64,000 nt of DNA from an uncultured Acidobacteriota bacterium (GTDB lineage: Bacteria > Acidobacteriota > Vicinamibacteria > Vicinamibacterales > JAKQTR01), in contig CAVOWJ010000007.1 of assembly GCA_963700065.1 (NCBI GenBank), positions 786,637 through 850,636 of the forward strand, given 5' to 3'. Position numbers and translations under genes: made by a program. Each line of letters begins with the position of its first letter. Position 1 is the first letter of the stretch. Below are positions 19,602-37,234 of this stretch, piece by piece. The notes beneath the pieces were generated by a model. That model was not told where the DNA came from, did no database searches, and was given only the letters and a program-made list of their open reading frames with translations.

Positions 19602-22081
19602 CTAGCCGATCAGCGCCCGCAGATCGCGCAGTTCCTTCTCCACAGCCCCGGCGTCGGCGTGGCGGCCAGCGGGCTCACGGCTGAAGGCTTGCGCGAAGAA
19701 GGCGTCGACCTCGGGGGGAACGTTCTCGCGCAGCGTCCCCGGCGGCGCCGCCAGTTCGGGCATGACCACGATCCCGTCGTTCGGGCCCGGGAACGGCCGG
19801 ATGCCGGTGAGGGCTTCGTAGAGCACCACCGACAGCGACCAGAGGTCGAAGGCCGGCCGTGGCGGCTGGCCCAGCAGCGCCTCCGGCGACATGTACGCGG
19901 GCGTGCCGACCACGGCGTGGGCGCGGTTGCGGTGGCGGCGGGCGTCGCCGCCCCTGGTCGTGTCCTCCGATGCGGACTCGGCGGCCTGCACAAGCTGCGC
20001 CACGCCGAAGTCGAGGAGCTTGGGCATGCCGGCCTGCGTGAAGCCGATGTTGCCCGGCTTGACGTCGCGGTGGATGATGCCGCGGTCGTGCAGGCGGCCC
20101 AGCACGTCGAGGAGCGTGAGGCCGAGATCGAGCGCGGCCGGGATCGCGATCGGGCCGTCCACGAGGCGGTCTGCCAGCGTGCCGCCAGGCAGGTACTCCT
20201 CGATCACGAACGGCACTCCGCGCCAGGTTTCGACGCCGTACACGACGGCGAGGTTCGGGTGGGTGACCGCAGCCATCGCGCGCGCTTCGGCCCTGAGGCT
20301 GGCCGCGCCCTCCGACGTCACGCGCGGCAGCGTCTTGACAGCCACGAGGCGGTCGAGTTCGAGGTCGCGGGCGAGGTAGACAATACCCATCCCCCCGGTG
20401 CCGAGGCGGCGCTCGAGGCGATAGACGCCGCGGAGCATGTAGGGCGCGGATCCGGTACCGTCCTGGCGCCGCACTGGCACAGGGCGGCGTCCGGCTGGCT
20501 GAGCCTCGTGCACACCTCGCACTCGCGCGCGTTCGGCGCCGGCGCGGCGTCCGGCGTCGTGCGCAGGCGCAGATTGTCGAGCGCCAGCGAGGTGGCCGCG
20601 CCCACGGCGGCCAGCAACTGCCGGTCCTCCTCCGTGTACTCGAGGCCGCTGCGCTTCTGGGTGAGCGCGATGAGGCCGCTGGGCCGGCCGTCGGGCCGCC
20701 TGAGGGCCAGCAGCAGCCTGAACCCGCCATCGAGCAGCCAGCGCTGCTCCTGCTCCGCGAGCCGCCTGAAGGGCGACCGATCGTTGCTCGGGTCCACATC
20801 CATCGGCTCCCTGTCGGCCGCGGCGAGCGTGACGAGGATGGCGTCCTCGGCGATCACGTCCGGCCCGCCGCCCGGGCGCTCGAACCGCCCGCGCGCCTCG
20901 TCGGCGACGAAGAGCGATGCCTCCGCGTGCAGGGATCGCTCGATGGCGTCGCGGAGGCGCCCGGCGAGGTCGCGCGTGTCAACCACGCGCAGGGCTTCGT
21001 GGGTGAGCCGCTCGAGGGTGAGGCGGGCGTCGTGCTGGTCGCGGAGGTACCGGCGGTCGAGCGCGGCCAGCCAGCCGCGCCGCAACCGGAGCGCCGCGAG
21101 CCCTGCGGCGGTGGTCAGGCCCAGCGCCACGGTCCGGGGCCCGGTGAGCAGTTCGGCCAGCGGCTGCTCGCGGTGTTCCACGAGCACCAGGACGAAGGCC
21201 GCGAACGGCACCAGGGTGACGCCGAGGATGGTGTACCGCGCGAGGCCGTACTGGAGAGCCGCGCGCAGGACGACTCGCAGATCGACCACCCGATCGAACA
21301 GCACGGAGTAGGCTGTCACGAGGGGTACCGCGGCGAGCGCGCCAAACAGCACGAGACCCACCGCCAGCTCCACGCCAGGCCGGTGCGAGAATGCCTTGTA
21401 CGACGGGATCGACTCCAGCAGCACCTGCAGGATGAGAGGCAGCGACCCGCCCACGAGCCCGGCGGTGAAGACCAACACCCGATGCCGCTCCTGCGCGCGG
21501 GCGCCCCACGCGCGCAGGACCAGCCACAGGAGCGCGGCGATGCTCAAGGCGTAGACGGTCAGGTAGTAGTAGCTCTGCGCGCCGACCAGGCGGATGAACG
21601 GACCGCGCCAGTCTGGAGGCGCCAGCGGCCACGCCAATGCCGAGAGGTTCACGAGCAGCAGTGCCAGGCCGACGCCCCCCGCCGCCTGCCACGCCAGGCG
21701 GGCGGCCCGCTCGGCGCGCCCGGTCAACCGGGATGGGAACTCGGCCGCGAAGCGCAGCAGCAGGGCCGGCAGAAACGCGTCGACGCGAACACTGAGCAGC
21801 CACTCGAAGCCGCGGGCCGCCGACCCCCGCAGCAGCGGCGTGGCGAGCTGCGTGGCGGCGAGGACGAACGCGCCGCCGAGCCAGAAGGCGCGCGCGTCGT
21901 GGCGGTTGGCGGCCGCCAGCGTCAGGCCCACCACGCAGAACGTCGCCGCCAGCGCCGCGTAGACTTCCAGCGGCAGGGGCGGGCGCACGCCGGCCGCGGC
22001 CGGGTCGGAGAGATAAAGGGCGTAGGTGAGCACCACCTTCGCGGCGGCGAGGGCAACCAGCACGCGAGACCAGATGGGCAC
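19602..22081 (-). CDS. multi-pass membrane sensor / GAF-like / zinc-ribbon / Ser-Thr protein kinase fusion; frame disruption near 20467
   Basis: The sensible part of ORF 20318..23119 starts at GVG... more precisely at GTG 22081 (VPIWSRVLVALAAAKVV...). It has about 10 hydrophobic helices, then a soluble region and CEVC...CQCG. It abuts kinase ORF 19602..20522 (GTGGMGIVYLARD, VAVK, HRDVKPGN, DFG). Confidence 0.7.
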
Positions 22082-22147: not shown

Positions 22148-23521
22148 ATGAGCGAGCGCGCCCCCGAGCTCCCCCGCACGCTCACCTTCCGCGACCTCCT
22201 CCTCTTCAAGCTCGTGGCCATCGTCAACGTGAGCCTGCTCACGCCGTCGGCCAGCCTCGGCAGGCCCGCGCTCTGGCTGTGGCTGGCGGCGTTCGCGCTG
22301 TTCTTCGTCCCCGAGGTCGTCGCGGTGCTGACGCTGGCGAAGCGGTATCCGGAGGAGGGCGGCATCTACACGTGGGCGGAACGGCGGTTCGGCCCGGCGC
22401 ACGGGTTCGTGTCGGGCTGGTGCTACTGGACGGGCAACCTCTTCTACTTCCCCATGCAGCTGGTCTACCTGGCCGGCGTGCTGGCGTACGCCGCGCAGGG
22501 ATCGGCCAGCGCGCTGGTGGACGACAAGACGTTCGTGGCCGCGGTGGCCGTGGCCTGGCTGGCGCTCGTGACCGTGCTGAACTTCGTCGGCCTCGGCGTC
22601 GGCAAGTGGCTGCCGAACGTCGGCGCCGTCTGCACGGCGTTCACGGCCGCGCTCATCGCCGGCGCGGGTGTCGTGGCGTGGCAAGCGGGCGCCGCGGCGC
22701 CGCCGAGGCCCGACCTGCCGTCGGCCGGCGAGGTCTTCTCGGGGCTGAGCGTCATGTGCTTCGCGTTCATGGGCGTGGAGCTCGTGTCGTCGATGGGCAG
22801 CGAGATCCGGCACCCGGACCGCGACCTGCCGCGCGCGGCGATGGCGGCCGGCGCCGCCACGCTCGGCATCTACCTCGCCGTCACGTGGTCGCTGCAGCAG
22901 CTGCTGCCGGCGTCGGACATCGGGGCGATCGAAGGCATCCTGCAGGGCGTCGATCTCGGCGTGAGGCGCCTGGGCCTCGAGCGCCTGGCCGCCCCGCTCG
23001 CCGGCGTGATGGCCGTGTCGCTCGCCGGCGGCCTCGCGGCCTGGTACGCCGGCTCGACGCGCATCCCGTTCGTGGCGGGCTTCAATCACGCGCTGCCCGC
23101 GGCGCTCGGCCGCGTGCATCCGCGATGGGGATCGCCCTACGTGGCGCTCCTCACGCAGGGCGCGCTCACGCTCGGCTTCATCGCGCTGACGATGTGGGGG
23201 TCGACCGTGCGGGAGGCGTATCAGGTGCTGCTGCGATCGTCGGTGGTCACCACGCTCATCCCGTTCAGCTACATGTTCCTCGTGCTGACCTTCCTGGATG
23301 GCGTGCCCGAGTGGAAGCGCGCGGCGGGCGTGGTGGGACTGCTGGTGAGCGTGGCCGGGATGATCGCCGCGTTCGTGCCCGGCAACGACGTGTCCAACGT
23401 GGCGTGGTACGAGGTGAAACTACTGGCCGGGTCCGTGCTGCCGCTGGCCGTGGGCCTGGCGTTCTTCCTGGCCGCCCGCTACCGGGCGCGGCAGGCCTTG
23501 CCTGCCCTGAGCGAGCGGTAG
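22148..23521 (+). CDS. APC superfamily amino-acid permease
   Basis: Only the part of ORF 20927..23521 from MSERAPELPRTLTFRDLLLFKLVAIVN reads sensibly. About 12 hydrophobic segments. It is divergent from the kinase gene. Confidence 0.85.
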   Translation: MSERAPELPRTLTFRDLLLFKLVAIVNVSLLTPSASLGRPALWLWLAAFALFFVPEVVAVLTLAKRYPEEGGIYTWAERRFGPAHGFVSGWCYWTGNLFYFPMQLVYLAGVLAYAAQGSASALVDDKTFVAAVAVAWLALVTVLNFVGLGVGKWLPNVGAVCTAFTAALIAGAGVVAWQAGAAAPPRPDLPSAGEVFSGLSVMCFAFMGVELVSSMGSEIRHPDRDLPRAAMAAGAATLGIYLAVTWSLQQLLPASDIGAIEGILQGVDLGVRRLGLERLAAPLAGVMAVSLAGGLAAWYAGSTRIPFVAGFNHALPAALGRVHPRWGSPYVALLTQGALTLGFIALTMWGSTVREAYQVLLRSSVVTTLIPFSYMFLVLTFLDGVPEWKRAAGVVGLLVSVAGMIAAFVPGNDVSNVAWYEVKLLAGSVLPLAVGLAFFLAARYRARQALPALSER

Positions 23522-23536
23522 CGAGTCAAAGGGCCC

Positions 23537-23564
23537 CTCGCCTCTCGCCTCTCGCCTCTCGCCT
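23537..23564. repeat. CTCGCCT heptamer x4 (plus degenerate copies) between convergent genes
   Basis: Direct reading: ctcgcct ctcgcct ctcgcct ctcgcct ctcccct. Confidence 0.6.
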
Positions 23565-23592
23565 CTCCCCTATCTCCTCTGGCCTCTTGCCA

Positions 23593-25398
23593 CTACCGGG
23601 CGAGGCCGACGGCGTCCGCGTTCCAGAGGATGGGCGGGCGGACGGGCGCTGGCGTGGCGCCGGCGACGCGCGTGCTCGTGGCCACGTAGACGCGCGGCAC
23701 GGCGAAGTAGATGATCGGCAGGTGCTCGGCGAGCAGTTTCTGCGCGTCGAGGAAGAGCTGGCGCCGGCGGCTCGGGTCGCGGTCGCCGGCCATCTGGGTC
23801 ATGAGCGTGTCGATCTGCTTCTCCCACGGCGTGGCCGGCACCGCCTGCTCCATGTTCCAGACGTGCGCGCCGCCCGAGCTGAGCCAGAAGTCCATGCTCA
23901 TCGCCGGGTCGGTGTCGGTGGTGAGGAAGCGGAAGTAGAGGGCGTCGTAGTCGCCCTTCGTCATGCGATCGACGAGCGCGCCCACCTCGAGCGGCACCAC
24001 GTCGACGGCGAGGCCCACCTTTTTCAGCTCGTCGCGGATGAGGGCCGCGCCCTTTTCGAGCGCCGTGTTCCCCTTCTGCGTCACCAGCGCGAAGCGCGCG
24101 GGCGCGCCGGCGGCGTCCTCGAGCATGCCGTCACTGTTCGCGTCGCGCAGGCCGAGGCCGGCGAGCAGCGTGCGCGCGCGGCCCATGTCGTAGGCCTCGC
24201 GGGTGATGGCGCCCTCCGGCGCGAACCACGCCGTGTTGGCCGGCGTGATCGGCCCCCACAGCGGCTCGGCCGCGCCCAGGAAGACCTCGTCGGCGAAGGC
24301 GCGCCGGTTCACGGCGTGCGACACGGCGCGGCGCAGCTCGACGCGCGAGAGCCACGGCCGGCCCTCGTGCGCCTTCGCGCCGGGCTTCAGGTTGAACCAG
24401 AACGCGTCGGCGTCGTAGGCCGTGCCGGCATCCACCAGGCGCAGCTTCCCGGCCGCCGCGTCACGCTTGAGCGCGGCGTAATCGTCGGGCCGGATCTCGC
24501 TCTGGGTGAGATCGGCCTGTCCGGCCTGCACGCGCAGCAGTTCGGCGTTCTGATCGGGCGTGATCTCGAGCGTGAGCCGGTCCAGATACGGCAGCGGCGT
24601 GCCCGCGCCGTCCTTCCGCCAGTACTTCGCGTTGCGCGCGAGCACCAGGCGCTGGCCGGGCTGGTAGGCTTCGATGACGAACGCCCCGAGGCCCACGATG
24701 TCGGAAGGCGGTGTGGCCGGGCCCCACTGCTGGCGGAGCGTGCCGGCCTTGAGCGCGGCCTCCAGCCTGTGCTTCGGCAGGATCGGCAGCATGTCGAGCA
24801 GGCGCAGGCCCGGGCCGAAGACCGACGGGAACGTCATCACCACCGTCTGTGCGTCGGGCGCTTTCACCGCGATGGGCTTGCCGCCCACGAGCAGGGCGTC
24901 GCCGAGGTGGCTGCCCGTCTTCTCGTCGTACGCCGCCTGGAACGAAAAGACGACGTCGGCCGACGTGAACGGCGCGCCGTCCGAGAACGTCACGCCCCGG
25001 CGCAGCTTCAGCGTGCACGACAGCGCATCGGGCGAGCAGGTGTACGACTCGGCCAGCCAGGGCTCCACCTCCTGCGTGGCGCGGTTGACGCGCAGCAGGC
25101 GCGCCTGCGTGAGCGAGACGACGAGCGTGGACGCGAAGTCGCGGCCGGCGTGCGGGTTGAACGTGCGCGGCTCGCTGCGCATGGTCGCGACGAGCGATCC
25201 GCCGCGAGCGGGTGCGGTCTGGATGGAGGTCGACCCTTCAGGGTCGACGCGCGTCGAGGCTGCCCTCGACTCCGCTCGGGCCGAGGAAGCCTCGACCTCC
25301 AGGTGCGCCGCTGCGCCGTACCACCCCCTCGGCCCGCTGGTGGTGGCCACCAGCCCTGCCATCGCCACAGCCACCCAGAGTCGAGACACAGTTGTCAT
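23593..25398 (-). CDS. ABC transporter substrate-binding protein, family 5 (peptide/nickel type)
   Basis: ORF track 612 aa. Preferred start is MTTVSRLWVAVAMAGLVA (signal peptide). Overall family-5 SBP-like sequence. No cognate permease or ATPase genes lie in the window. Confidence 0.8.
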   Translation of the reverse strand: MTTVSRLWVAVAMAGLVATTSGPRGWYGAAAHLEVEASSARAESRAASTRVDPEGSTSIQTAPARGGSLVATMRSEPRTFNPHAGRDFASTLVVSLTQARLLRVNRATQEVEPWLAESYTCSPDALSCTLKLRRGVTFSDGAPFTSADVVFSFQAAYDEKTGSHLGDALLVGGKPIAVKAPDAQTVVMTFPSVFGPGLRLLDMLPILPKHRLEAALKAGTLRQQWGPATPPSDIVGLGAFVIEAYQPGQRLVLARNAKYWRKDGAGTPLPYLDRLTLEITPDQNAELLRVQAGQADLTQSEIRPDDYAALKRDAAAGKLRLVDAGTAYDADAFWFNLKPGAKAHEGRPWLSRVELRRAVSHAVNRRAFADEVFLGAAEPLWGPITPANTAWFAPEGAITREAYDMGRARTLLAGLGLRDANSDGMLEDAAGAPARFALVTQKGNTALEKGAALIRDELKKVGLAVDVVPLEVGALVDRMTKGDYDALYFRFLTTDTDPAMSMDFWLSSGGAHVWNMEQAVPATPWEKQIDTLMTQMAGDRDPSRRRQLFLDAQKLLAEHLPIIYFAVPRVYVATSTRVAGATPAPVRPPILWNADAVGLAR

Positions 25399-25564
25399 CC
25401 TCGACACCTCGCTGTCGATGTATCGGCGCAACCGCCCTGTTCCCGCACGGTTTCAGCGGAACTTCAGCCGGCCGAACACCCGGCTCAGGCCGGGCGACAC
25501 GATCTGGGTGACCGACGCGAAGGGTCGGGAGGTCAAGGGCCGGATCCTGCCGCTCGGCAGCGAC

Positions 25565-25790: not shown

Positions 25791-25806
25791 TGGCATCGTC
25801 TTCGCT
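25791..25806 (+). promoter_or_regulatory. sigma-54 type -24/-12-like motif upstream of S8 protease 1
   Basis: TGGCATCGTCTTCGCT has the GG-N10-GC spacing of the TGGCAC-N5-TTGCW consensus. It lies about 107 nt before ATG 25913. Confidence 0.3.
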
Positions 25807-25912: not shown

Positions 25913-27838
25913 ATGAGCGGCGGATTCTCGATGGTGCGGCGGTGGTTGGCGATGGTGCTGGGCGCGGCGCTCCTGGTGGCGCTGGCGATGCCGGCAGCGG
26001 CGCAGCACCGGGCGCGGCTGTCGAAGGACCTGTCCGACGAGCTGGGCTCGCCCACCCGCGCGGCGCTGCAGGTGATTGTGCAGGGCGACAGCGCGCAGGC
26101 GCAGCAGCTGGCGGCCCGCCTCGGCCTCCGCGTGAAGAAGGTGCTCGAGTCGGGGACCGTGCTCGAGGGCTCGGCCGGCCAGATCGAGGCCGCCGCCGCC
26201 GATCCCGAGGTTGGTCACCTCTCGCTCGACGCCGAGGTGAAGGGCCAGATGGCCGTCACCCGCGAGGCCATCGGCGCCTCGCTGGTCTACGGCAACTTCG
26301 TGCGTGAGCGCGGCTACACCGGCAAGAACGTCACCATCGCCGTCATCGACTCGGGCATCGACGCCGGCTACCCCGGCCTGCAGGGCCGCCTCGTCTACAG
26401 CAAGGACTTCACCGGCACAGGCCTCGACGACCAGTTCGGCCACGGCACGCACATCGTGGACCTCATCGCCGGCGCCGAGCACGGCGGCAACTTCGGCGGC
26501 GTGGCGCCCGAGGCGCGCATCGTGTCGCTGAAGGTGCTCAAGGCCGACGGCAGCGGGCAGACGAGCGACGTCCTCGCGGCCCTCGACTGGGTGCGCCAGA
26601 ACCGCGTCCGCTACCAGATCCGCGTCGTCAACCTCTCGCTCGGCCACCCCGTGTTCGAGTCGTACCAGGACGACCCGCTCGCGCAGGCTGTGCAGCGCCT
26701 CATCGACGACGGCGTGGTGGTGGTGGCCTCGGCGGGCAACTACGGCAAGGTGAAGGTGGACGGCGTGGACGTGCCCGTGTTCGGCGGCATCTCCTCGCCG
26801 GGCAACCTGCCGGACGTCATCACCGTGGGCGCGCTGAACACGTTCGGCACCGTCGACCGCGGCGACGACTCGGTGGCCACCTACAGCTCGAAGGGCCCGA
26901 GCGCGTTCGACAAGGTGCTCAAGCCGGATCTGGTGGCGCCCGGCAACAAGCTCTGGGCGTACATGGCGGCCGGCACCACCGTGCCCGGCGGCATTCCCGA
27001 GCAGTACCTGGGCACCGCGCCCGACGGCTCGCCGCTTATCGCCATGAGCGGCACCAGCGAATCGGCCGGCGTCGTCGCAGGCGTGGTCGCGCTGATGCTC
27101 GAAGCCAACCCGTCGCTGCGCCACGCGCACGTGAAGATGGCACTGCAGTTGTCGGCCGAGTTCCTGCCGGAAGGCGTGCTGGTAGGCGGCTCGGGCAGCC
27201 TGAACGCGGCCGGCGCCGTGTGGATGGCGAAGAACGGCCCGAGCCCGAAGGTGCCCACCGCGCTCATCGGCGGCGATGAGATCGCGGGGAGCGGGGTGCT
27301 GTTCTGGACCGGCAGGAAGAGCGGCCTGCGCGACATCGTCGATGGCGATCGCATCATCTGGGGCGACCGGATCATCTGGGGCGACCGGATCATCTGGGGC
27401 GACCGGATCATCTGGGGCGACCGGATCATCTGGGGCGATCGCATCATCTGGGGCGACCGGATCATCTGGGGCGACCGGATCATCTGGGGCGATCGCATCA
27501 TCTGGGGCGACCGGATCATCTGGGGCGACCGCATCATCTGGGGCGACCGGATCATCTGGGGCGACCGCATCATCTGGGGTGACCGCATCATCTGGGGCGA
27601 CCGGATCATCTGGGGCGACCGCATCATCTGGGGTGACCGCATCATCTGGGGCGACCGCATCATCTGGGGCGACCGCATCATCTGGGGCGACCGCATCATC
27701 TGGGGCGACCGCATCATCTGGGGCGACCGCATCATCTGGGGCGATCGCATCATCTGGGGCGACCGGATCATCTGGGGCGATCGCATCATCTGGGGCGACC
27801 GGATCATCTGGGGCGACCGCATCATCTGGGGCGACTGA
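25913..27838 (+). CDS. secreted S8 (subtilisin-like) serine peptidase with C-terminal (DRIIWG)x27 array
   Basis: ORF track 641 aa. SD GGAGGA. Signal peptide. Triad contexts VIDSGID, HGTHIVD and SGTSESAG. Confidence 0.9.
   Translation: MSGGFSMVRRWLAMVLGAALLVALAMPAAAQHRARLSKDLSDELGSPTRAALQVIVQGDSAQAQQLAARLGLRVKKVLESGTVLEGSAGQIEAAAADPEVGHLSLDAEVKGQMAVTREAIGASLVYGNFVRERGYTGKNVTIAVIDSGIDAGYPGLQGRLVYSKDFTGTGLDDQFGHGTHIVDLIAGAEHGGNFGGVAPEARIVSLKVLKADGSGQTSDVLAALDWVRQNRVRYQIRVVNLSLGHPVFESYQDDPLAQAVQRLIDDGVVVVASAGNYGKVKVDGVDVPVFGGISSPGNLPDVITVGALNTFGTVDRGDDSVATYSSKGPSAFDKVLKPDLVAPGNKLWAYMAAGTTVPGGIPEQYLGTAPDGSPLIAMSGTSESAGVVAGVVALMLEANPSLRHAHVKMALQLSAEFLPEGVLVGGSGSLNAAGAVWMAKNGPSPKVPTALIGGDEIAGSGVLFWTGRKSGLRDIVDGDRIIWGDRIIWGDRIIWGDRIIWGDRIIWGDRIIWGDRIIWGDRIIWGDRIIWGDRIIWGDRIIWGDRIIWGDRIIWGDRIIWGDRIIWGDRIIWGDRIIWGDRIIWGDRIIWGDRIIWGDRIIWGDRIIWGDRIIWGDRIIWGDRIIWGDRIIWGDRIIWGD
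27347..27835 (+). repeat. 18-bp in-frame tandem repeat x27 encoding DRIIWG
   Basis: 489 nt. Unit variants are GGCGACCGG/GGCGATCGC/GGCGACCGC/GGTGACCGC + ATCATCTGG. All the differences are synonymous. Confidence 0.95.
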
Positions 27839-28085
27839 CCGGGCGTAGCCCTGCTCTTCACGCCGCACCCGCCGGTGCTTCTTCATCTTTCGGCCGGCGG
27901 TTGCGGCGTTCGTTTGTCTGCCAGCCGGCCCCTGGCCTACGCGTGCCGCCCGGCAACGGCCTCGAAGCATTGCGCCTGGACCCCGAATCCGGCTGGTCCG
28001 GATCCGATCACGCATTGCCAGCAGGGGTCGAACTTCTGCTCGGGCACAAGCTCGGGTCGCGGTACGCGGTGGTACTACGAGTGTG

Positions 28086-28262
28086 ATGGCGAGTGTCGTC
28101 TCATCCGGATCGAATGAGTGTAAGCTGCCCACGGCGCCTATCGGCGACGATGAGATCGCGGGGAGCGGGGTGCTGTTCTGGACCGGCCAGACGACCGGCC
28201 TGCGCGACATCGTCGACGGCGACAGGATCATCTGGGGCGATCGGATTATCTGGGGCGACTGA
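28086..28262 (+). pseudogene. remnant of an S8 protease C-terminus (tail plus 2 IIWGD units), preserved as a 58-codon mini-ORF
   Basis: From 28125 it reads LPTAPIGDDEIAGSGVLFWTGQTTGLRDIVDGDRIIWGDRIIWGD*. This is collinear with 27250-27360 of S8 gene 1. Confidence 0.6.
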
Positions 28263-29171: not shown

Positions 29172-29229
29172 CCCATAGCCCCGGTGGACGGCCGCGGGCG
29201 AGGCCCGGGGCGTCCACTCGCACACGGCC

Positions 29230-29377
29230 AGGACATGCCCGTGTTCGGCGGCGTCTCGTCGCCGGGCAACCTGCCCGATGTCACCACCGCGGCCGCGCTG
29301 AACACGTTCGGCACCGTCTCCCGCACAGACGATTCGGCGGCCACATCCGGGGCGATTGCATCATCTGGGGCGACTGA
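29230..29377 (+). pseudogene. remnant of an S8 protease core fused by internal deletion to a terminal IIWGD unit
   Basis: DMPVFGGVSSPGNLPDVTTAAALNTFGTVSRTDDS is collinear with VDVPVFGGISSPGNLPDVITVGALNTFGTVDRGDDS of gene 1. It then jumps to ...GATTGCATCATCTGGGGCGACTGA, out of frame. Confidence 0.6.
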
Positions 29378-29436: not shown

Positions 29437-29781
29437 TCAGAGCAACAGCGGCACCTGCTTCGCCGATTCCGGCGTCATCAGCAGCAGGGCGCGGAATGCC
29501 TGCCGGTGCGCGCCGAGGTCGGGAGACGGCGCGATGAACTCGGCCGCCACGAGGTCGCGCCACCGGAGCAGCTCTTTCCGGCGGGTTGAGGTCGCCTCCG
29601 CCACCGTGAGATCGGTCAACTGCAGCACGCGCTCGTAGCACCCGCGCGCCTGATCGACCGCCGGCCCGGCCAGCAGCGACGACGCCCGGTTCATCTCGTT
29701 CGCGATCATCAGCACCTGCGTGGGAAAGGGAAACTGGCGCCATCGTTCGGGCGAGAGCCCCCGGTGCTGCGGCGCGGTCAC
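29437..29781 (-). CDS. hypothetical protein (114 aa)
   Basis: Only the C-terminal part of ORF 29437..30075 reads sensibly. GTG 29781 overlaps the upstream stop (GTGA). Confidence 0.45.
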   Translation of the reverse strand: MTAPQHRGLSPERWRQFPFPTQVLMIANEMNRASSLLAGPAVDQARGCYERVLQLTDLTVAEATSTRRKELLRWRDLVAAEFIAPSPDLGAHRQAFRALLLMTPESAKQVPLLL

Positions 29782-30158
29782 AGAGCCTCGCCCGTCCCGA
29801 TCAGGCCTTCCACCAGGCGGCGGACCTGCTCCCGGACGTCCTGGCTCTGGATCTCCATGCTTCGGTTGCCCTGGCCCGGGCGGATGTTGATGAGCGCCGT
29901 GTACTCGACGCATCGCTCGGGGCCCAGCCCCGGGAAGTAGTTCGCGCCCCACAGATCTTCCTGCCTGCTGCCCCGGTCGAGCAGCAGCGCTTCGGCGTCC
30001 GCGTGCAGCTCGCCGCCGGCGGCCACCAGACCGCGCCGCACGTCGACGACGATCTTGACCATGTCGCCGAACCACGCGGCGACCAGGCGACGCAGCTGCT
30101 CTGGCGGGATCGGCGCTGCCGCGATCACAATCGACGGGGCGCTGTCGGGGCCTGCCAT
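29778..30158 (-). CDS. DUF5674-like hypothetical protein (126 aa)
   Basis: Sensible sequence starts at MAGPDSAPSIVIAAAP... It contains IVVDVRRGLVAAGGELHADAEALLLDRGSRQEDLWGANYFP, which I recall as DUF5674-like. The family name is tentative. Confidence 0.5.
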   Translation of the reverse strand: MAGPDSAPSIVIAAAPIPPEQLRRLVAAWFGDMVKIVVDVRRGLVAAGGELHADAEALLLDRGSRQEDLWGANYFPGLGPERCVEYTALINIRPGQGNRSMEIQSQDVREQVRRLVEGLIGTGEAL

Positions 30159-30304
30159 GCGCCTCAGATTATCCCATGGCCGTGCGGATGCCAACGCCGG
30201 GGCACGCGCCTGCCGCACCAGCCGGCGGCCCCGCGTCCGCGCCTCCGCGAGGCGCCTCAACAGGCCCCCGAACCGGCTACACTACCCGGAACGGGAGCCT
30301 TCAC

Positions 30305-32356
30305 ATGACCATCGCCACCCGGGCCGGCCGCGCCGCGGCCGCGATTGCCGCCGTCACGCTGTTCGCCCTCGCTTCTCTCGGCGCCGCCCAGCCCGCGTCC
30401 GACTGGATGCTCTACCGCGCCGCCATCGCCGCCGCCAGCGGCGCGCTGCGCCTGCACGAAACCTCCGACGCCAAGCGCTGGCTGGCCGACGCGCCCGCCG
30501 CGCACCGCGGCTGGGAGTGGCGCTACCTGAACGGCCTGGCCGACGAGAGCGTCGCCGCGCGCAAGGCGCACGACGCGGTCATCACCGGCCTCGCCGCCAG
30601 CCTCGACGGCCGCCTGCTCGCCACCACTTCCGCCGACAAGTCGGTGAAGCTGTGGGACGCGCAATCGGGCGCGCCCGTCGCCACCCTCGCCGGCCACACC
30701 GCCGCCACGTGGTCGCCCGCCTTCCGGCCGGGCGGCGCGCACCTGGCGACGATGGGGTCGGACGGCGCCGTGCGGGTGTGGTCCGTCGCCGACGCGCGCG
30801 AGGCGCGCGAAGCCCGCGCGTACGAGAAGCTCGGCAACGGCATGGGCGCCGTGGCCTGGAGCCCCGACGGCGCGCTGCTGGCCGCCGCCACGTGGACCTT
30901 CGAGCGCGGCGCGGGCGTCAAGGGCTGGCTGCATCTCTGGGATTTCGAAAAGAACGCCCTGCTCTGGAAGGCCGAGTACGGCGTGAAGCCGATCGTGTCG
31001 CTCGCGTTCCATCCCGACGGCACGCGCTTCGCCGCGGGCACGTGGGACGGATGGGTGGGCGTGTTCCCCGTTGACGGGGGCGGCAAGCCGGCGGCGGAGG
31101 CGAAGCAGACGGCGGTGGACGGCTCCTACCCTGCCGTCCAGGCCGTGGCGTACGCGCCCGACGGCAACACGCTGGCCGTCGCGTTCAAGGACAACATGGT
31201 CCGCCTCTACGACGCGCGCACCGCCGGGTTGCGCCACGAGCTGCGCGGTCATCCGCGCTGGGCCAACGCCGTGGCGTTCGGGCCTGGCGGCGCGTGGCTG
31301 GCGTCGGGGTCGTCGGACGAGACGCTGCGCATCTGGGACGCCGCCACCGGCCGCGAGCGGCGCGTCCTGCGCGGCCACACGGCGTCGGTCAATGCCGTGG
31401 CCGTCGTGCCGCAGCACGCGCGCGCCGTCACCGGCGCCGCCGACGGCACGCTCCGCTGGTGGGACATGGCGAAGGCCGGGTCGCCGCGCGATCGCTGGAC
31501 GCACGAGGGCGACGTCTACGGCTTCGCGTTCTCGCCCGACGGCAGGCTGGCCGCGTCCGCGTCCTGGGGCGGCGCCGTGAAGCTATGGGACACCGCCACC
31601 GGCCGCGAGCGCTGGAGCAAGCCGATTCACCAGAGCTCGGCCAACGCCGTGGCCTTCAGCCCCGACGGCGCGCGCCTCGTGAGCGGCGGCAACGACGGCC
31701 GGCTGCAGCTGGTGAACGCGGCCGACGGCGCCGTCATCGCCACGTGGGAAACCGTGAAGGACGGCCGCGCCGCCGCCATCGCGTGGAGCGCCGACGGCCG
31801 CACCGTCTTCTGCCCGTCGTCGCGCCCCACGGGCAAGGTGTGGGACGCGGCCACGGGCCAGGTGCTGCACACGCTCACCGGCGGCACCGGCGAGATCTAC
31901 GACGCCGCGTTCTCGCCCGACAGCCGGCTCGTCGCTCTCGGCTGGACCGGCGGCGAGGCCATCGTCTTCGATCGGGCCACCGGCGCGCCCATCGTCGGCC
32001 TTCCGATACAGGCGGGGGGTGTCTGGGCCGTGGCGTTCCATCCCAACGGCAGAGTGCTGGCCACCGGCAGCGGCGGCCGGGTGATTGCGCTCTGGGAGAT
32101 GCCGTCGGGCACACCCGTGCGCTCGCTCGAAGGCCACACCGAACTCGTCTACGACCTGCACTTCTCGCCCGACGGCGCGCGGCTCGCGTCGGCGAGCACC
32201 GATCAGAGCGTGCGGCTGTGGGAGCCCGGTTCGGGCGCGCACCTGCTGACGATTCCCTATCCCGTCCAGGTGTACGGCGTGCGGTTCAGCCCCGACGGCC
32301 GCACGCTGGCCGTGGCGCCCATGGACAGCAGCATCCGCCTGCTCGAAGCGAAATAG
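30305..32356 (+). CDS. secreted WD40 repeat protein
   Basis: Start MTIATRAGRAAAAIAAVTLFALASLGAAQP. Many WD repeats: SADKSVKLWD, GSDGAVRVWS, SSDETLRIWD, ADGTLRWWD, WGGAVKLWD, STDQSVRLWE. Confidence 0.85.
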   Translation: MTIATRAGRAAAAIAAVTLFALASLGAAQPASDWMLYRAAIAAASGALRLHETSDAKRWLADAPAAHRGWEWRYLNGLADESVAARKAHDAVITGLAASLDGRLLATTSADKSVKLWDAQSGAPVATLAGHTAATWSPAFRPGGAHLATMGSDGAVRVWSVADAREAREARAYEKLGNGMGAVAWSPDGALLAAATWTFERGAGVKGWLHLWDFEKNALLWKAEYGVKPIVSLAFHPDGTRFAAGTWDGWVGVFPVDGGGKPAAEAKQTAVDGSYPAVQAVAYAPDGNTLAVAFKDNMVRLYDARTAGLRHELRGHPRWANAVAFGPGGAWLASGSSDETLRIWDAATGRERRVLRGHTASVNAVAVVPQHARAVTGAADGTLRWWDMAKAGSPRDRWTHEGDVYGFAFSPDGRLAASASWGGAVKLWDTATGRERWSKPIHQSSANAVAFSPDGARLVSGGNDGRLQLVNAADGAVIATWETVKDGRAAAIAWSADGRTVFCPSSRPTGKVWDAATGQVLHTLTGGTGEIYDAAFSPDSRLVALGWTGGEAIVFDRATGAPIVGLPIQAGGVWAVAFHPNGRVLATGSGGRVIALWEMPSGTPVRSLEGHTELVYDLHFSPDGARLASASTDQSVRLWEPGSGAHLLTIPYPVQVYGVRFSPDGRTLAVAPMDSSIRLLEAK

Positions 32357-32597: not shown

Positions 32598-32613
32598 TGG
32601 CACCATTTTCGCT
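32598..32613 (+). promoter_or_regulatory. sigma-54 type -24/-12-like motif upstream of the HTH gene and S8 protease 2
   Basis: TGGCACCATTTTCGCT has one mismatch to TGGCAC-N5-TTGCW and the correct GG-N10-GC spacing. It lies about 29 nt before GTG 32642. Confidence 0.3.
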
Positions 32614-32641: not shown

Positions 32642-32851
32642 GTGGACCGCCACAACAACAAAGTCCAGACTCTCAAGGAGTTTACGATCCGCAGCCTGTC
32701 GCTGGCCCAGACGAGCGAGGCCCTCGGCGTCTCGCGCCGCACACTCTATTACTGGATCAAGCGGGGCCGCCTGAAGACGCGGCGCACCTCGATGGGCTCT
32801 CAGCGCGTGCTGCTCGATTCGTTGAAGGCCAGCTGGGTGCAGCGGCACTAG
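32642..32851 (+). CDS. excisionase/MerR-type helix-turn-helix DNA-binding protein
   Basis: ORF track 69 aa. LAQTSEALGVSRRTLYYWIKRGRLK is a typical excisionase-family HTH. SD GGAGGTG. Confidence 0.7.
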   Translation: MDRHNNKVQTLKEFTIRSLSLAQTSEALGVSRRTLYYWIKRGRLKTRRTSMGSQRVLLDSLKASWVQRH

Positions 32852-32921
32852 CGCCGGGTCGATAGACAACTGGATGAGTTTCGCACGGGCACCTGTGGGC
32901 GCATGCCCGCGGAGGAGCGAT

Positions 32922-34595
32922 ATGAACGGCAGGTTCTCGATCGTGCGGCGGGCGGTGACCCTGGCACTGGGCGCGGCCCTCGTCGCCGGGCTGGCGCTGC
33001 CCGCCTCGGCGCAGCACCGGGCGCGGCTGTCGAAAGACCTGGCCGCCGAGCTGGCATCGCCCACGCGCGCGGCCCTCCAGGTGATCGTGGAGGGCGACGA
33101 CGCGCGGGTGAAGACGCTGGCGGCGCGCTACGGCTTCCGCGTCACGAAGATGCTCGACGGCGCCGCGGTTCTCGAGGGCTCGGCCAACCAGGTCGACGCG
33201 GCCGCCGGCGATCCCGACATCGCGCGCCTCTCGCTCGACGCCGACGTGCGCGGCCAGATGGCCGTCACGCGCGAGACCATCGGCGCCGACCTCGCCTACG
33301 GCGGCTTCGGCGGCGTGCCTGGCGTTACCGGCAGCGGTGTCGTCGTGGCCGTCATCGACTCGGGCGTCGATCGCACCAATCCCGCCGCCGCGGGCAAGGT
33401 GCTCGAGACGGTCGACTTCACCGCCACCGGCGACAACGATCTTTTCGGCCACGGCACGCACCTCACCAGCGTGATTGCCGGCAACGAGCTGGGCGGCAAC
33501 TACGGCGGCGTCGCCCCCGGCGCGCGCATCGTCTCGCTCAAGGTGCTCGAGGCCGACGGCTCGGGCAAGACCAGCAACGTCATCCGCGCCCTCAGGTGGG
33601 TGCGCGAGAACGCCCGGCGCCTCAACATCCGCGTGGTCAACGTGTCGCTCGGCCACCCCGTGTTCCAGTCGTACAAGGACGACCCGCTGGCGCAGGCCGT
33701 GCAGAAGACCATCGACGCGGGCCTGGTGGTGGTGGCCTCGGCGGGCAACTACGGCAAGGTGACCATCGACGGCAAGGACGTGCCCGTGTATGGCGGCATC
33801 TCGTCGCCGGGCAACCTGCCCGACGTCATCACCGTGGGCGCGCTCAACACCAGGGGCACCGTCAACCGGTTCGACGATCAGGTGACGACGTACAGCTCGA
33901 GGGGGCCGAGCGCGATCGACCGGGTGATCAAGCCCGATCTCGTGGCGCCGGGCAACAAGGTGTATGGCGCGCTGGTGACTGGCAGCACCGTGGACCAGAC
34001 CGCGCCGGCGGGCACCGAGATGCCGTCGCCGAACGGCACGCCCATGGTGGCCATGAGCGGGTCGAGCGTGTCGGCGGGCGTTGTGACCGGTGTCGTGGCG
34101 CTGATGCTCGAGGCCAACCCGTCGCTCGGCCAGCGGCACGTGAAGATGGCGCTGCAGCTCTCGGCGCAGTTCATGCCCGAGGGCGTGCTCGTCGCCGGGT
34201 CGGGGAGCCTGAACGCGGCGGGGGCCGTGTGGATGGCGAAGAACGGACCCAGCCCGAAGGTGCCCAAGGCGCTCATCGACGTGGACGAGATTGCGGGCAG
34301 CGGGGTGCTCTTCTGGAGCGGGAAGAAGAGCGGGCTGAAGGACATCCTGCACGGGAGCCGGATCATCTGGGGCGATCGCATCATTTGGGGCGATCGCATC
34401 ATCTGGGGCGATCGCATCATCTGGGGCGATCGCATCATCTGGGGCGACCGGATCATCTGGGGCGACCGCATCATCTGGGGCGACCGCATCATCTGGGGCG
34501 ACCGCATCATCTGGGGCGACCGCATCATCTGGGGCGATCGCATCATCTGGGGTGACCGGATCATCTGGGGCGACTGCCTCGCTTCGGGGGAATAG
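32922..34595 (+). CDS. secreted S8 (subtilisin-like) serine peptidase with C-terminal ([SD]RIIWG)x12 array; paralogue of 25913..27838
   Basis: Start MNGRFSIVRRAVTLALGAALVAGLALPASA follows SD GGAGGAG. Triad contexts VIDSGVD, HGTHLTS and SGSSVSAG. Confidence 0.9.
   Translation: MNGRFSIVRRAVTLALGAALVAGLALPASAQHRARLSKDLAAELASPTRAALQVIVEGDDARVKTLAARYGFRVTKMLDGAAVLEGSANQVDAAAGDPDIARLSLDADVRGQMAVTRETIGADLAYGGFGGVPGVTGSGVVVAVIDSGVDRTNPAAAGKVLETVDFTATGDNDLFGHGTHLTSVIAGNELGGNYGGVAPGARIVSLKVLEADGSGKTSNVIRALRWVRENARRLNIRVVNVSLGHPVFQSYKDDPLAQAVQKTIDAGLVVVASAGNYGKVTIDGKDVPVYGGISSPGNLPDVITVGALNTRGTVNRFDDQVTTYSSRGPSAIDRVIKPDLVAPGNKVYGALVTGSTVDQTAPAGTEMPSPNGTPMVAMSGSSVSAGVVTGVVALMLEANPSLGQRHVKMALQLSAQFMPEGVLVAGSGSLNAAGAVWMAKNGPSPKVPKALIDVDEIAGSGVLFWSGKKSGLKDILHGSRIIWGDRIIWGDRIIWGDRIIWGDRIIWGDRIIWGDRIIWGDRIIWGDRIIWGDRIIWGDRIIWGDRIIWGDCLASGE
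34356..34574 (+). repeat. 18-bp in-frame tandem repeat x12 encoding [SD]RIIWG
   Basis: 219 nt. The synonymous unit variants match those of the 27347 array. It is followed by CLASGE and a stop. Confidence 0.95.
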
Positions 34596-34715: not shown

Positions 34716-35365
34716 GTGACGGAGGTCGAAGCCCGCGCGGTGCTGCAACGCTTCGGCGCCGTTGCAGAACGGTTCGCGCCCTGCTTCGGTCGGCACATGC
34801 AGCGCGATGAGGCGAGTCGCTACCTGGCGGGCCTCGTCAACGATAGCGCGCGCAATTCAATGCAGGCGATGCATGGCCGGTCGAGCGACGCGGGGTCGTA
34901 CCAAGCACTGCAGCACTTCATTACGCACTAGCAGTGGGCCGTCGGTCCTGTCAGGGCGCGCCTGCGCGCCGCGATCGCGGACCGCAGCGGCATTCTCGCG
35001 TTCGACGATACGGGGTTCCCGAAACAGGGCACGCACTCGGTGGGCGTGAGGCGGAACTACTGCGGGGCGCTTGGGAAGACGGGCAACTGCCAGGTCGGCG
35101 TGTCGACCCCCTTAGTTGGGCCAGCGATCGTGTGGCCGACGAGTTGCGAGTTGTACCTGGCGGTCGACTGGGCGGTGGATCCCGACCAGCTCGACCAGGC
35201 GCGCTTGCCGCGCATGGTCCGCTCCCGCGAGAAATGGTCCATCGTCTTGGCGCACATTCGCGAGGTCGTGAAGGCCGGCTTCACGATCGAGGCCGTGGTC
35301 GCCGACGTCGACTATGGCACGACGACCGTGTTTCGCACCGGGCTGGAGCGGCTGGGCCTGCCGTC
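34716..35365 (+). mobile_element. IS701-family transposase gene, 5' ~216 codons, with in-frame TAG (34929) and 3' truncation
   Basis: AFDDTGFPKQGTHSVGVRRNYCGALGKTGNCQVGVS is a classic IS701-type DDE N-terminal motif. The same frame continues across the TAG. Homology ends at GLERLGLP, where the IS21 fragment begins. Confidence 0.75.
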
Positions 35366-35374
35366 CCGACCCCA

Positions 35375-35968
35375 CCGCAGCGCGGTGGTTTTCGGGCGGT
35401 CGAAGACCGCGACCAAGGGGATGCCGCCGAAAGCAGCCAGATGGGCCACGAGGGTCCGCACCAGCGTCTCGACGCGCTCGTCGGGCACCCGCGTCACCTC
35501 GACCCACCGGTAGTACTCCAGCCGCGAGGCAAAGAAGTGAACCTTCTCCTCCCCGCCGTCCTGATACCGGACGATCACCTCGCCGAAGTAGTGCTGGGAG
35601 AACTGGCCCGCCAGCGCTTCAAACCGCACCAGCGGCGTCACCACCCGGCCGCGCAACGTCTGCGCCAAGGCATATCGCGCCGTCTCGCCGCCCGTGTAGC
35701 CTGCTCCGCGGGCGCGGTGGAGCAACTCGATCGTCCGCAGCGTCGCATCCTCCGCCAACACCCCCCAGAAAACCTCGAGATACGCCTGCGCCTTGGGCTG
35801 ACGCCCGATCTGCCGCCGGTCCCGCTCCGCATCGTTATCGACCGTCGTGACCGCGGCTTCGTCCACGACCCGCCGGACCGTCCCGACGAATACGCCGCTG
35901 AGCGCCGCCACCTCGGTCAGGGTGTGCCCCGCCCGCCGCAGCACCTGGATTTCGCGTCGCTTGAGCAT
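35375..35968 (-). mobile_element. IS21-family istA transposase, 5' fragment (HTH plus start of the catalytic region)
   Basis: MLKRREIQVLRRAGHTLTEVAALSG...PLVAVFDRPKT. The remainder of ORF 35312..35968 reads through into IS701 DNA. Confidence 0.65.
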
Positions 35969-37234
35969 CTAGATCATCCTTGGAAGTGTCAACGATCTTT
36001 CGCACTCTCTGCGGTGACCTCTGCCTGATTGCAACGCGATCTTGGCACGAGCCTCGTCGGTAAACACCAATGCCGCGGTCAGGTAGCGTCGAGATCCCCA
36101 GCGCCTCGCGGCCACATGCCGCAGACGCGCGGCGACGAGCATCAAGGCCGATTGGCCGTTCGGGAACGCCCCGACGACCCGTGTCCGTCGGAGGATCTCG
36201 CGAATGATCCGCTCCAGCGGGTTGTTGGTGCGTGTCTGGCGCCAGTGCGTGCAGGGAGACGCATCGTAGGTCAGCGTGTCGCCGACGGCCTCCTGGATGA
36301 GCTTGGCCGCCTTGCCCAGCTTCATTCTCTCGAGCTTCGATGCCACCTCCTTCGCCTTGGCCTTCGCGGCCGTCCGGTCTTCCTGCGCGTGAATCGCCTT
36401 CAGCATCCGGACGACATCCGCGAACTTGCCATCGGGGATCAGGCTGAACACATTCCGGTACCCGTGCACGACGCAGCGCTGCCACCGCACGTCGGGAAAG
36501 ACCTCCGCGGCGGCATCCACGAGGCCGACGCAGGCATCGCTGACAATGAGCTGCACGCCGTTCAACCCGCGGTCTTTGAGGTGCCGGCGGGACCCCAGCC
36601 AGCCGCTGCGGCTTCCTTGTCGCGCTCGGCAACGCCCAGGATGTGTCGATAGCCATCGATCCCGATGCCGATCGCCACCAGCACCGAGACGTTGCGCACT
36701 TCGCCGGGCCAGCTCCGCGTCAGCACGAGCCCATCGAGGAACACCTAGAAATGGCTCCCATCGATCGGTTTGGTGCGCCAGGTTTTAGTCTGGGCGTAGA
36801 TCCGCTGATTCAAGCGGCGGACGGTCCCGGAGCTCACCCGCGTACCCCAGAGGGCTTCGGTGATGTCTTCGACCCGGCGCACACTGACTCCAGCAAGATA
36901 CCTCTCGACCAAGGCCTCTTCGACCGAGGCTTCTCGACGGCGGTACCGCTCGATGATCGCCGTTTCGAAGGCGAGCCGGCGCAGCTTCGGCACCTTCAGG
37001 GTGACTTCGCCCGCCATCGTCTCGAGCTGCCGCTCGTAATGACGGGCCCGGGTGTCCACCCGTTCCGGTGACCGCTCGTACCGCTGGGCGCGGCAGATGC
37101 GATCGGCTTCCGCATCCAAGATGCGTATTCAGCGTCTCTTCCGCAATGCCGAGCACGACCTCATCGACGCGCACCTTGAGCTTCGTCTCGTCAACGGATA
37201 CCGCCTCGAGCCGGGTAGTGGTATCGTCCTGCAC
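35969..37234 (-). mobile_element. IS256-family (mutator-type) transposase pseudogene
   Basis: The pieces are ORFs 36785..37234, 36745..37119, 36562..36744 and 35969..36565 (SVLVAIGIGIDGYRHILGV, LIVSDACVGL, WQRCVVH, RTNNPLER). It has an in-frame TAG at 36745 and frame shifts near 37125 and 36600. Confidence 0.8.

Follow-up and report, generated by a model that had tools for sequence, protein, structure and literature searches.

What does a long array of near-identical hexapeptides do at the end of a protease? This question is raised by a stretch of 64,000 nucleotides (the window) from an uncultured Acidobacteriota bacterium (GTDB lineage Bacteria; Acidobacteriota; Vicinamibacteria; Vicinamibacterales; JAKQTR01; assembly GCA_963700065.1, contig CAVOWJ010000007.1, positions 786,637 to 850,636 of the forward strand). 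Two genes of the window, here called A and B, encode subtilisin-like proteases of family S8 (subtilases) that end in 27 and 12 DRIIWG-type hexapeptides, respectively. An original prediction, made from the letters of the DNA, had proposed that these tails form either a strictly periodic solenoid or a precursor of multiple short peptides. We give about an even chance to a reading in which a nutritional protease under sigma-54 control carries the tail as a β-rich structural appendage. The protease itself is ordinary, and the tail, as judged from sequence comparisons, is an undescribed variant of short-period β-solenoid-type repeats, widespread yet invisible to present annotation. The coordinates of the features, all given in window numbering, are collected in Table 1.

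Two putative exported subtilases end in tandem hexapeptide arrays

The products of genes A and B appear to be Sec-exported pre-pro-subtilases that end in a tandem Trp-hexapeptide array. Their N termini are hydrophobic and end in ...PAAAQ (A) and ...PASAQ (B), representing putative Sec signal peptides. PF00082 was the sole domain match of both proteins in Pfam and NCBIfam (159.9 bits for A and 161.4 bits for B; cutoff, 21.8). The catalytic motifs of gene A read VIDSG, GHGTH, and SGTS, and the columns of the catalytic Asp, His, and Ser and of the oxyanion Asn were invariant in an alignment of 83 sequences (D162, H193/H196 within GHGTH, N256, and S398 in the 573-amino-acid numbering of gene B). 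An AlphaFold model of gene B that was based on this alignment displayed a helix at residues 22 to 40 and a propeptide-like β-α-β-β-α-β unit at residues 68 to 121. The predicted local distance difference test score (pLDDT) was above 90 for the catalytic core and the propeptide-like unit and 86 to 96 for the linker up to approximately residue 480. The closest solved relative of the catalytic part was Tk-SP from Thermococcus kodakarensis (PDB 3afg; E = 7e-45), which is likewise a pre-pro-S8 protein with a C-terminal extension. The extension of Tk-SP is a globular β-jelly roll domain, whereas the window proteases end in a tandem hexapeptide array instead. For gene B, the ATG at 32922 is more likely to be the start codon than position 32874, because its ribosome-binding site GGAGGA lines up with the one ahead of gene A. 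Gene A was 96% identical to an incomplete S8 peptidase found in a metagenome-assembled genome of Gemmatimonadales, the contig of which stops just short of the array; the exact gene A protein was not on record in public assemblies.

Both arrays were confirmed by cutting the sequence in frame and by Tandem Repeats Finder, which placed array A at 27344 to 27835 (period, 18; 27.3 copies; score, 858) and array B at 34358 to 34574 (period, 18; 12.1 copies). The encoded tails have an exact six-residue periodicity of 27 and 12 hexapeptides. Array A is built from four types of DNA unit, all coding for DRIIWG: GACCGG (11 units), GACCGC (9 units), GATCGC (5 units), and GACCGC..GGT (2 units). Array B contains six types, of which five code for DRIIWG; the remaining type is the first unit, which starts with AGC-CGG and codes for SRIIWG, in agreement with the Ser that had been predicted at this position. 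The proposal that the units differ only at silent sites (GAC/GAT, CGG/CGC, and GGC/GGT) was likewise correct, and array B contains a further synonymous variant, one ATC/ATT, that had been overlooked. All of this variation affects third positions, with unit 1 of array B as the sole exception. Since a single base of the unit can change in 54 ways, of which only 11 are synonymous (a silent share of 20% under neutrality), the observation that four out of four polymorphic sites are silent is unlikely to have arisen by chance (P roughly 0.002). The order of the unit types within the arrays is nonuniform and interspersed. Long open reading frames (ORFs) in the other frames or on the other strand of the arrays (26881 to 27861, minus strand; 27276 to 27848, plus strand; 33878 to 34564, minus strand) encode SPQMMR... 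and SSGATG... repeats and were rejected as mechanical by-products. Similar off-frame translations occur as mistranslations in some metagenome contigs (L117 and L136).

Proteins A and B align without gaps and are approximately 70% identical ahead of the array. In the 58 residues that immediately precede the array, they display approximately 90% amino acid identity, but the same codon is used at only approximately 69% of the identical residues. This high identity of the protein despite diverged codons indicates purifying selection rather than recent gene conversion, and the low codon sharing shows that the paralogs are old and that no recent homogenization has affected the sequence adjoining the array. 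Synonymous differences are numerous right up to the array edge; nonetheless, the two arrays share the peptide and the codon variants. Because the flanks hold so many synonymous differences, recent gene conversion between A and B was rejected as the sole cause of the array identity.

The A/B locus has undergone gene duplication and decay. Two decayed remnants ending in IIWGD, which had been proposed from the sequence, are both real and are situated between the two genes. In remnant 1, positions 28122 to 28262 are 89% identical to nucleotides 1336 to 1473 of gene A (linker and first units) and read ...DGDRIIWGDRIIWGD*. In remnant 2, positions 29224 to 29344 are 86% identical to nucleotides 848 to 968 of gene A. 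An internal deletion has joined this mid-S8 part to the array end at 29344 to 29377, which is out of frame with it and reads ...CIIWGD*.

The hexapeptide is conserved while the array length varies

A DNA pattern for 2.5 IIWGDR units retrieved 59 metagenome contigs, most of them with the match at a contig end, so that 60 sources with 588 units were available when the window was included. The original prediction had claimed selection on every unit, and the larger set of units bears this out. Exactly DRIIWG is encoded by 514 of the 588 units (87%), and the codon differences from the consensus comprised 414 synonymous versus 131 nonsynonymous changes, a count that is somewhat biased by the pattern search but exceeds the 20% synonymous share by a large margin. 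The unit is, moreover, shared by the two diverged paralogs of the window. The remaining units are mostly DRIVWG, DRVIWG, or a second type, DTLVWG/T, that is interleaved in mosaic arrays. Arrays that were spanned on both sides had copy numbers of 8, 9, 11, 12, 15, 16, 18, 18, 20, 20, 23, 24, 26, and 27, and a gene B-like protein from a metagenome carries 15 units, showing that the length is hypervariable among close relatives. The predominance of DRIIWG, the synonymous excess, and the varied lengths together indicate that the peptide is selected while the array length is hypervariable. At the sequence level, these data show purifying selection on the DRIIWG amino acid sequence and translation of the array as part of the protease. 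They also show a copy number that changes freely among relatives, from 8 to 27 units, which would fit slippage or unequal recombination of 18-bp units.

The counts of 27 and 12 in the window are divisible by three, as had been pointed out, but this does not extend to a rule: the spanned arrays range from 8 to 27 units, and copy numbers divisible by three were found for 33 of 95 homologs, exactly the chance level. Most DRIIWG-type proteins end exactly at ...IIWGD-COOH, i.e., at a unit boundary, which suggests that the tail is a terminal module and not a stalk to a further domain. Unit types apparently recombine within a single array. Some mosaic arrays interleave DTLVWG/T or STVVWG with DRIIWG, and others alternate DRVIWG and DRIVWG at a higher order (L108, L111, L137, and L094/L122).

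The arrays belong to a large family of protease tails

A search with gene B returned 3118 relatives from Vicinamibacterales, other Acidobacteriota, and Gemmatimonadales. With few exceptions, the full-length relatives end in [ILV][ILV]WG[NSDQT] repeats, with 3 to 22 copies per protein and a spacing of 6 to 22 residues (modes of 8, 10, 12, and 6); the closest homologs use periods of 8, 10, and 12 residues. Degenerate repeats of variable length, which the original prediction had associated with a known anchoring or propeller domain, are thus present in the homologs, but they are not those of any such domain. Irregular inserts such as ...WGNQ[LV][FY]YNDPAWA..RIVWGD recur in arrays of different homologs, as is typical of a folded domain.

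Loci of the wider family were scanned in one genome per species, resulting in 80 loci that cover all main acidobacterial classes. A period of 6 predominates in these loci, with units such as STMVWG (17 times), ENIVWG, DNVVWG, NSVVWG, NTLIWD, DGVVWS, and NTIVWT. At the same C-terminal position, units lacking Trp (GDGVLI, GDGVLV, DGVILS, and DGVITG) are found in Pyrinomonadaceae, Blastocatellia, and Chloracidobacterium. A unit profile drawn from 166 proteins revealed polar turn positions, x1 (D/N/S/T/E/Q) and x2 (S/N/T/R/A/G), two aliphatic positions, x3 (I/V/L/A) and x4 (V/L/I), an invariant Trp at x5 (100%), and Gly (69%), Ser, or Ala at x6. The family consensus of the Trp-type unit is [DN]-[SNT]-[IV]-V-W-G, and thousands of S8 peptidases of Acidobacteriota and Gemmatimonadota end in this manner.

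When the pure array was used as a phmmer query against 1.84 billion representative sequences, 1464 matches were obtained. All Trp-type arrays that were checked belong either to an S8 protease or to part of an S8 gene that a frameshift has split; one match represents a read-through into a neighboring GNAT gene (P0240, an array fragment fused to an acetyltransferase). The matches without Trp were YdcK β-solenoid, Hexapep, and bactofilin-type hexapeptide proteins. A profile of 24 idealized (synthetic) units, searched against 5.8 billion proteins, yielded only 38 short matches, all pieces of frameshift-split S8 genes, and this search gives no information on non-S8 carriers. The window arrays thereby appear as the idealized extreme of a large, protease-specific, length-variable repeat family. 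Such idealized arrays of variable length would be natural "designed" repeat proteins that are useful in protein engineering.

The original prediction had not recognized the repeat as a named domain, and this holds: no Pfam, NCBIfam, PDB, or literature entry that describes the Trp-type tail was found. Literature searches on the pentapeptides, on hexapeptide repeats with subtilases or Acidobacteria, on Trp ladders with solenoids, and on Gemmatimonadetes proteases returned nothing relevant. Matches to Lysostaphin_N and DUF963 were rejected as low-complexity artifacts. Public short-read assemblies end at or within arrays (P0002, P0003, P0008, and most of L083 to L141), and database proteins are often truncated. 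Since the assemblies break at the arrays, the tail is underrepresented in databases.

A proposed β-rich tail for self-association or anchoring

Homologs of the tail point to β-solenoid-type repeats. Pfam Hexapep matched the tails of Trp-less homologs at 57.4 and 40.7 bits (above the cutoff of 27) and at 24.3 bits, and the 7/8-residue DNILWGS tails of other homologs matched PF21300 (LbR_Ice_bind, the grass antifreeze β-roll) at 44.5 and 30.2 bits (cutoff, 30). Genes A and B had no match to PF21300. The Lolium perenne ice-binding protein of this family resembles the tails in its 7- to 8-residue x-x-N-x-V-x-G repeats; however, it has neither Trp nor a protease, and the similarity may be one of periodic composition only. 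With Hexapep proteins (PF00132; LpxA-type acyltransferases) and YdcK (PF18836), the tail shares the strict six-residue period, a Gly by the turn, a polar turn, and alternating aliphatic residues. It differs from them by the Trp in every unit, by the Trp or Arg that a core position would hold in either register, and by its position on the C terminus of a secreted protease rather than within a transferase; its relatives, furthermore, have periods of 8 to 12 residues. The RTX β-roll tails of serralysin-type proteases provide another parallel, as they combine a secreted protease with a C-terminal array of short Gly/Asp repeats. RTX repeats are calcium-binding nonapeptides (GGxGxDxUx) that form a β-solenoid outside the cell and are followed by a type I secretion signal, in proteins that lack a Sec signal peptide. 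In the window proteins, by contrast, the signal peptide is putatively of the Sec type and the repeat is a Trp hexapeptide; proteins of this kind usually end at the last unit.

The confident AlphaFold model of the tail alone displayed a strict EEEE-- period of 6, i.e., four-residue strands and two-residue turns, and a predicted β-rich periodic structure is the only consistent signal on the tail geometry. In our preferred reading, four-residue strands (R-I-I-W) would be linked by two-residue G-D turns. The strands would stack as a β-solenoid, akin in pattern to hexapeptide β-helix repeats, or as a β-ribbon, and Trp ladders would be displayed either way. Through the tail, the secreted enzyme probably self-associates or becomes attached; as a terminal module for this purpose, the tail would have its reach or avidity set by the array length and would not primarily be a peptide store. 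Anchoring could retain the nutritional protease at the cell envelope, in the matrix, or on particles, making the released peptides available for uptake. In soils and sediments, Acidobacteriota and Gemmatimonadota rank among the most abundant bacteria, and secreted peptidases set the rate of protein-nitrogen turnover there. Whether the tail tethers the enzyme or is shed would alter models of extracellular proteolysis by these phyla, with a cell-bound enzyme in one case and a freely diffusing enzyme in the other.

Several results weigh against this reading. The DRIIWG tail of gene A matched no Pfam or NCBIfam model, and neither this tail nor an STMVWG tail gave a Hexapep match at E <= 1. With the family alignment, AlphaFold modeled no fold for the tail of gene B (pLDDT, 34 to 51), and with the tail alone, one of five models was confident (pLDDT, 78; predicted template modeling score, 0.39). 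A Foldseek search with the confident model found nothing in the PDB at E <= 0.001 (best E = 2.2) and no left-handed β-helix, and the profile of 24 idealized units found nothing among PDB sequences at E <= 10. Either β-helix register of DRIIWG would place an unsuitable residue in the core, because Trp falls on B3 in W-G-D-R-I-I, while I-W-G-D-R-I brings Arg to B1 and Trp to B4. Selection acts on the entire unit, Asp and Arg included, and would be just as compatible with a released peptide.

Two more specific geometries were considered. A new fold, either a Trp-ladder β-solenoid or a Trp/Arg-zippered β-ribbon with a geometry unrelated to that of known hexapeptide helices, is rather unlikely. The structure of the tail would reveal either hexapeptide β-helices with a Trp per unit or a new repeat fold. 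A canonical left-handed β-helix, with three hexapeptides per 18-residue coil, Trp ladders, and possibly LpxA-type trimerization, is unlikely. It would agree with the exact period of 6, with the family consensus, which fits two of the three constraints of the β-helix rule [LIV]-[GAED]-x2-[STAV]-x in either register, with the Trp-less homologs that exceed the Hexapep cutoff, and with the retrieval of YdcK-type solenoids, which have an aromatic residue before Gly. The DRIIWG and STMVWG tails, however, gave no Hexapep match, AlphaFold yielded no stable fold for the tail, and Foldseek detected no such helix. In addition, the copy numbers are not multiples of three, and the 8-, 10-, and 12-residue periods of the closest homologs cannot build 18-residue coils. 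The core would also have to hold Trp or Arg, whereas solved left-handed β-helices have almost exclusively Ile/Val/Leu at core position B3 (preprint 10.1101/2023.06.27.546660). Thus, the solenoid with three hexapeptides per turn that had originally been put forward is backed by the Trp-less homologs but not by the Trp-type tail itself.

Sigma-54-type promoter-like sites and nutritional context

Genes A and B are predicted to be sigma-54 dependent, given the promoter-like sites upstream of both genes and a putative cognate AAA+ activator nearby. In the DRIIWG clade, the motif TGGCAC-N5-TTCGCT was found upstream on the sense strand in 16 of 19 cases and on the antisense strand in none of the 19, and the sigma-54-type motif is mostly situated approximately 315 to 345 bp upstream, matching gene B. 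At the 80 wider-family loci, it was not enriched (20 upstream versus 26 inside genes), and the claim of sigma-54 control is therefore confined to the DRIIWG clade. Of the 36 metagenome contigs that extend at least 1.5 kb beyond the array, 16 have an activator ortholog beside the DRIIWG-type S8 gene, and such an ortholog is also present at 12 of the 80 wider-family loci. The link to sigma-54 would provide a testable regulatory handle on the tail-bearing proteases. The N-terminal domain of the activator had no meaningful match in the PDB. In the DRIIWG clade, the promoter-like sites, the HTH_17 ORF, and the sigma-54 activator together resemble a conserved regulatory unit.

The protease genes sit among genes for peptide uptake and for peptidases (the solute-binding protein SBP_bac_5, the amino acid permease, and the M16 and M24 peptidases), which constitutes a nutritional context. 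Neighbors that recur across the 80 loci are an HD-GYP/GAF protein, SBP_bac_5 (17 loci, and also 5 DRIIWG-type contigs), the activator, and a GNAT protein. The commonest of these is a multipass membrane HD-GYP (HD_5)/GAF protein, which was found at 51 of the 80 loci, usually directly downstream and on the same strand (e.g., L001, 10122 to 12059). This association hints at a link of the S8-repeat protease family to cyclic di-GMP signaling. No HD-GYP neighbor was detected in the window by tblastn. In locus L081 (1 to 2026), the HD-GYP/GAF protein additionally carries MASE9 and GGDEF. A gene for a GNAT acetyltransferase (Acetyltransf_3) is situated directly downstream of the S8-repeat gene at several loci (L081, 4360 to 6171; L082, 7488 to 8150).

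A disposable or peptide-releasing tail is improbable

It is improbable that the tail is a C-terminal pro-region or pseudosubstrate that aids export or folding, or occludes the active site until the enzyme has left the cell, and is then trimmed without having a function of its own. Removable C-terminal extensions are common on secreted subtilases, and the extra C-terminal domain of Tk-SP would be in line with this idea; in addition, the repeated hydrophobic-Trp-Gly motif would make a good subtilisin substrate. A pro-region would, however, not need a hypervariable number of 8 to 27 perfect units, and the strict period together with selection on the turn residues is unexpected for a disposable substrate. 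Contact of the tail with the active site was not seen in AlphaFold, in which the tail was unmodeled.

We consider it quite improbable that the array is a multicore reservoir, in which the subtilase or another protease cuts each unit (e.g., after Trp) and frees numerous copies of a hexapeptide, for instance GDRIIW or IIWGDR, that could act in signaling or be bioactive. Conservation under synonymous drift extends to all six residues of the unit, the copy number varies as it does in multicore precursors, and the arrays end exactly on a unit boundary. Moreover, two hydrophobic residues and Trp followed by a small residue would resemble the P3-P1/P1' site of subtilisin, whose preference for hydrophobic P3-P1 residues with a small P1' residue is established. 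The cyanobactin precursor PatE, which is cut by the S8 proteases PatA and PatG, the fungal repeat precursors, which are processed by Kex2, and Phr peptides share with the window genes the tandem identical short peptides, the S8 protease, and the variable copy number. The genes of the window differ from these systems in many respects. No radical-SAM, YcaO, lanthipeptide, prenyl, or cyclase genes and no exporter were found among the window neighbors, and the proteases are not of the PatA/PatG type (TIGR03895 scored only 34.3 and 40.6 bits on A and B versus a cutoff of 421). Successive units follow each other directly, with no recognition sequence between them, and the protease and the repeat form one polypeptide. 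In the family, the Asp-Arg boundary is not kept (D/N/S/T at x1 and S/N/T/R at x2), and only hydrophobic-hydrophobic-Trp-Gly is invariant. The homologs have degenerate structural-type repeats with an irregular spacing of 6 to 22 residues and conserved nonrepeat inserts, and the Trp-less members resemble ordinary hexapeptide β-helix repeats. A sequence that consists of 50% Ile/Trp is also unlikely to stay unfolded. The multicore reservoir of the original prediction is weakened accordingly, above all by the absence of maturation genes and recognition sequences, by the unconserved Asp-Arg, and by the degenerate spacers.

In a variant of the reservoir, the hexapeptide might be reimported by the Opp-type binding protein and sensed by the N-terminal region of the activator, which has a weak TPR match. 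Phr peptides are processed by subtilisin-like proteases, imported by Opp, and sensed by TPR receptors, and the surroundings of the S8 genes, which carry sigma-54 promoter-like sites, likewise include a binding protein of the Opp type and a regulator that matches TPR weakly. A complete circuit of this kind, in which the store is autoreleased by a cut after each Trp and the imported pheromone acts through the activator to induce the protease genes from their sigma-54 promoters, is very unlikely. The commonest neighbor in the wider family is the HD-GYP/GAF membrane protein and not the sigma-54 activator. If true, the circuit would represent a Gram-negative, protease-encoded analog of Phr/RRNPP signaling, in which the copy number sets the signal dose.

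That the arrays are an assembly artifact or a neutral, recent microsatellite-like expansion without function is scarcely credible: short-read assemblies break at the arrays, which makes the copy number in any single assembly uncertain, the best database matches extend no further than the array edge, and the metagenome matches are mostly found at contig ends, but arrays of 15 to 27 units were spanned independently in many contigs, the unit types are interspersed in nonuniform order, and two diverged paralogs and many diverged orthologs keep the peptide with a strong synonymous excess.

Other features of the window

Table 1. Features of the 64,000-nucleotide window (positions in window numbering)
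Feature	Position	Strand	Details
Tandem duplication, ~3.5 kb	742-3708 and 4237-7213		78-100% identity, spacing ~3500 bp; Glucodextran_B / Big_7 Ig-like domain proteins
M16 peptidase	14022-15389	-	
M24 peptidase	15886-17007	+	
Ser/Thr kinase	19602-20522	-	
Amino acid permease	about 22236-23521	+	
7-bp tandem repeat GCCTCTC	23533-23591		8.4 copies; gap between permease gene end and SBP_bac_5 gene end
Opp/Dpp-type solute-binding protein SBP_bac_5	23593-25431	-	Divergent from gene A; PF00496, 255 bits; NCBIfam Opp/Dpp/Nik
Sigma-54-type -24/-12 promoter-like site	25791-25806	+	TGGCATCGTCTTCGCT; 122 bp upstream of gene A start codon
Gene A	25913-27838	+	641-amino-acid pre-pro-subtilase: putative signal peptide, propeptide-like α/β region, S8 domain, linker, 27 DRIIWG; G+C at third codon positions of the ORF, 0.96
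Gene A S8 catalytic domain	26321-27157	+	Amino acids 137-415; PF00082, 159.9 bits
Gene A linker to array	27158-27346	+	Conserved, β-rich; ...AKNGPSPKVP...DEIAGSGVLFWTG...DIVDG
Array A	27347-27835	+	27 x 18 bp = (DRIIWG)27 and terminal Asp (GAC); units proper, 27347-27832; stop TGA, 27836-27838
Remnant 1	28083-28262	+	C-terminal gene fragment (linker, 2 units, stop); decayed third copy
Remnant 2	29224-29377	+	Mid-S8 fragment joined out of frame to last ~2 array units and stop
DUF5674 protein	29778-30260	-	
WD40 protein	30176-32356	+	
Sigma-54-type promoter-like site	32598-32613	+	TGGCACCATTTTCGCT; 324 bp upstream of gene B start codon
HTH_17 ORF	32642-32851	+	69 amino acids, GTG start; between promoter-like site and gene B; PF12728, 33.4 bits (cutoff 27)
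Gene B	32922-34595	+	Paralogous 557-amino-acid pre-pro-subtilase from ATG 32922; mechanical ORF begins at 32874; ends in 12 units and DCLASGE
Array B	34356-34574	+	SRIIWG and 11 x DRIIWG, then Asp; units proper, 34356-34571; DCLASGE and stop follow
Mutator-family (IS256-like) transposase fragment	35969-36565 (probably also 35312-35968)	-	PF00872, 122 bits, partial; between gene B and activator gene
Sigma-54 enhancer-binding protein	37479-40331	-	~620-amino-acid uncharacterized N-terminal region (weak TPR match), AAA+ sigma-54 activator domain, HTH_8; Pfam and NCBIfam
TIR and KAP-family P-loop NTPase protein	41250-44612	-	1120 amino acids; N-terminal TIR; defense-like architecture

The G+C content of the window ranges from 0.60 to 0.75 and falls to 0.60 to 0.62 over the region from 36 to 40 kb.

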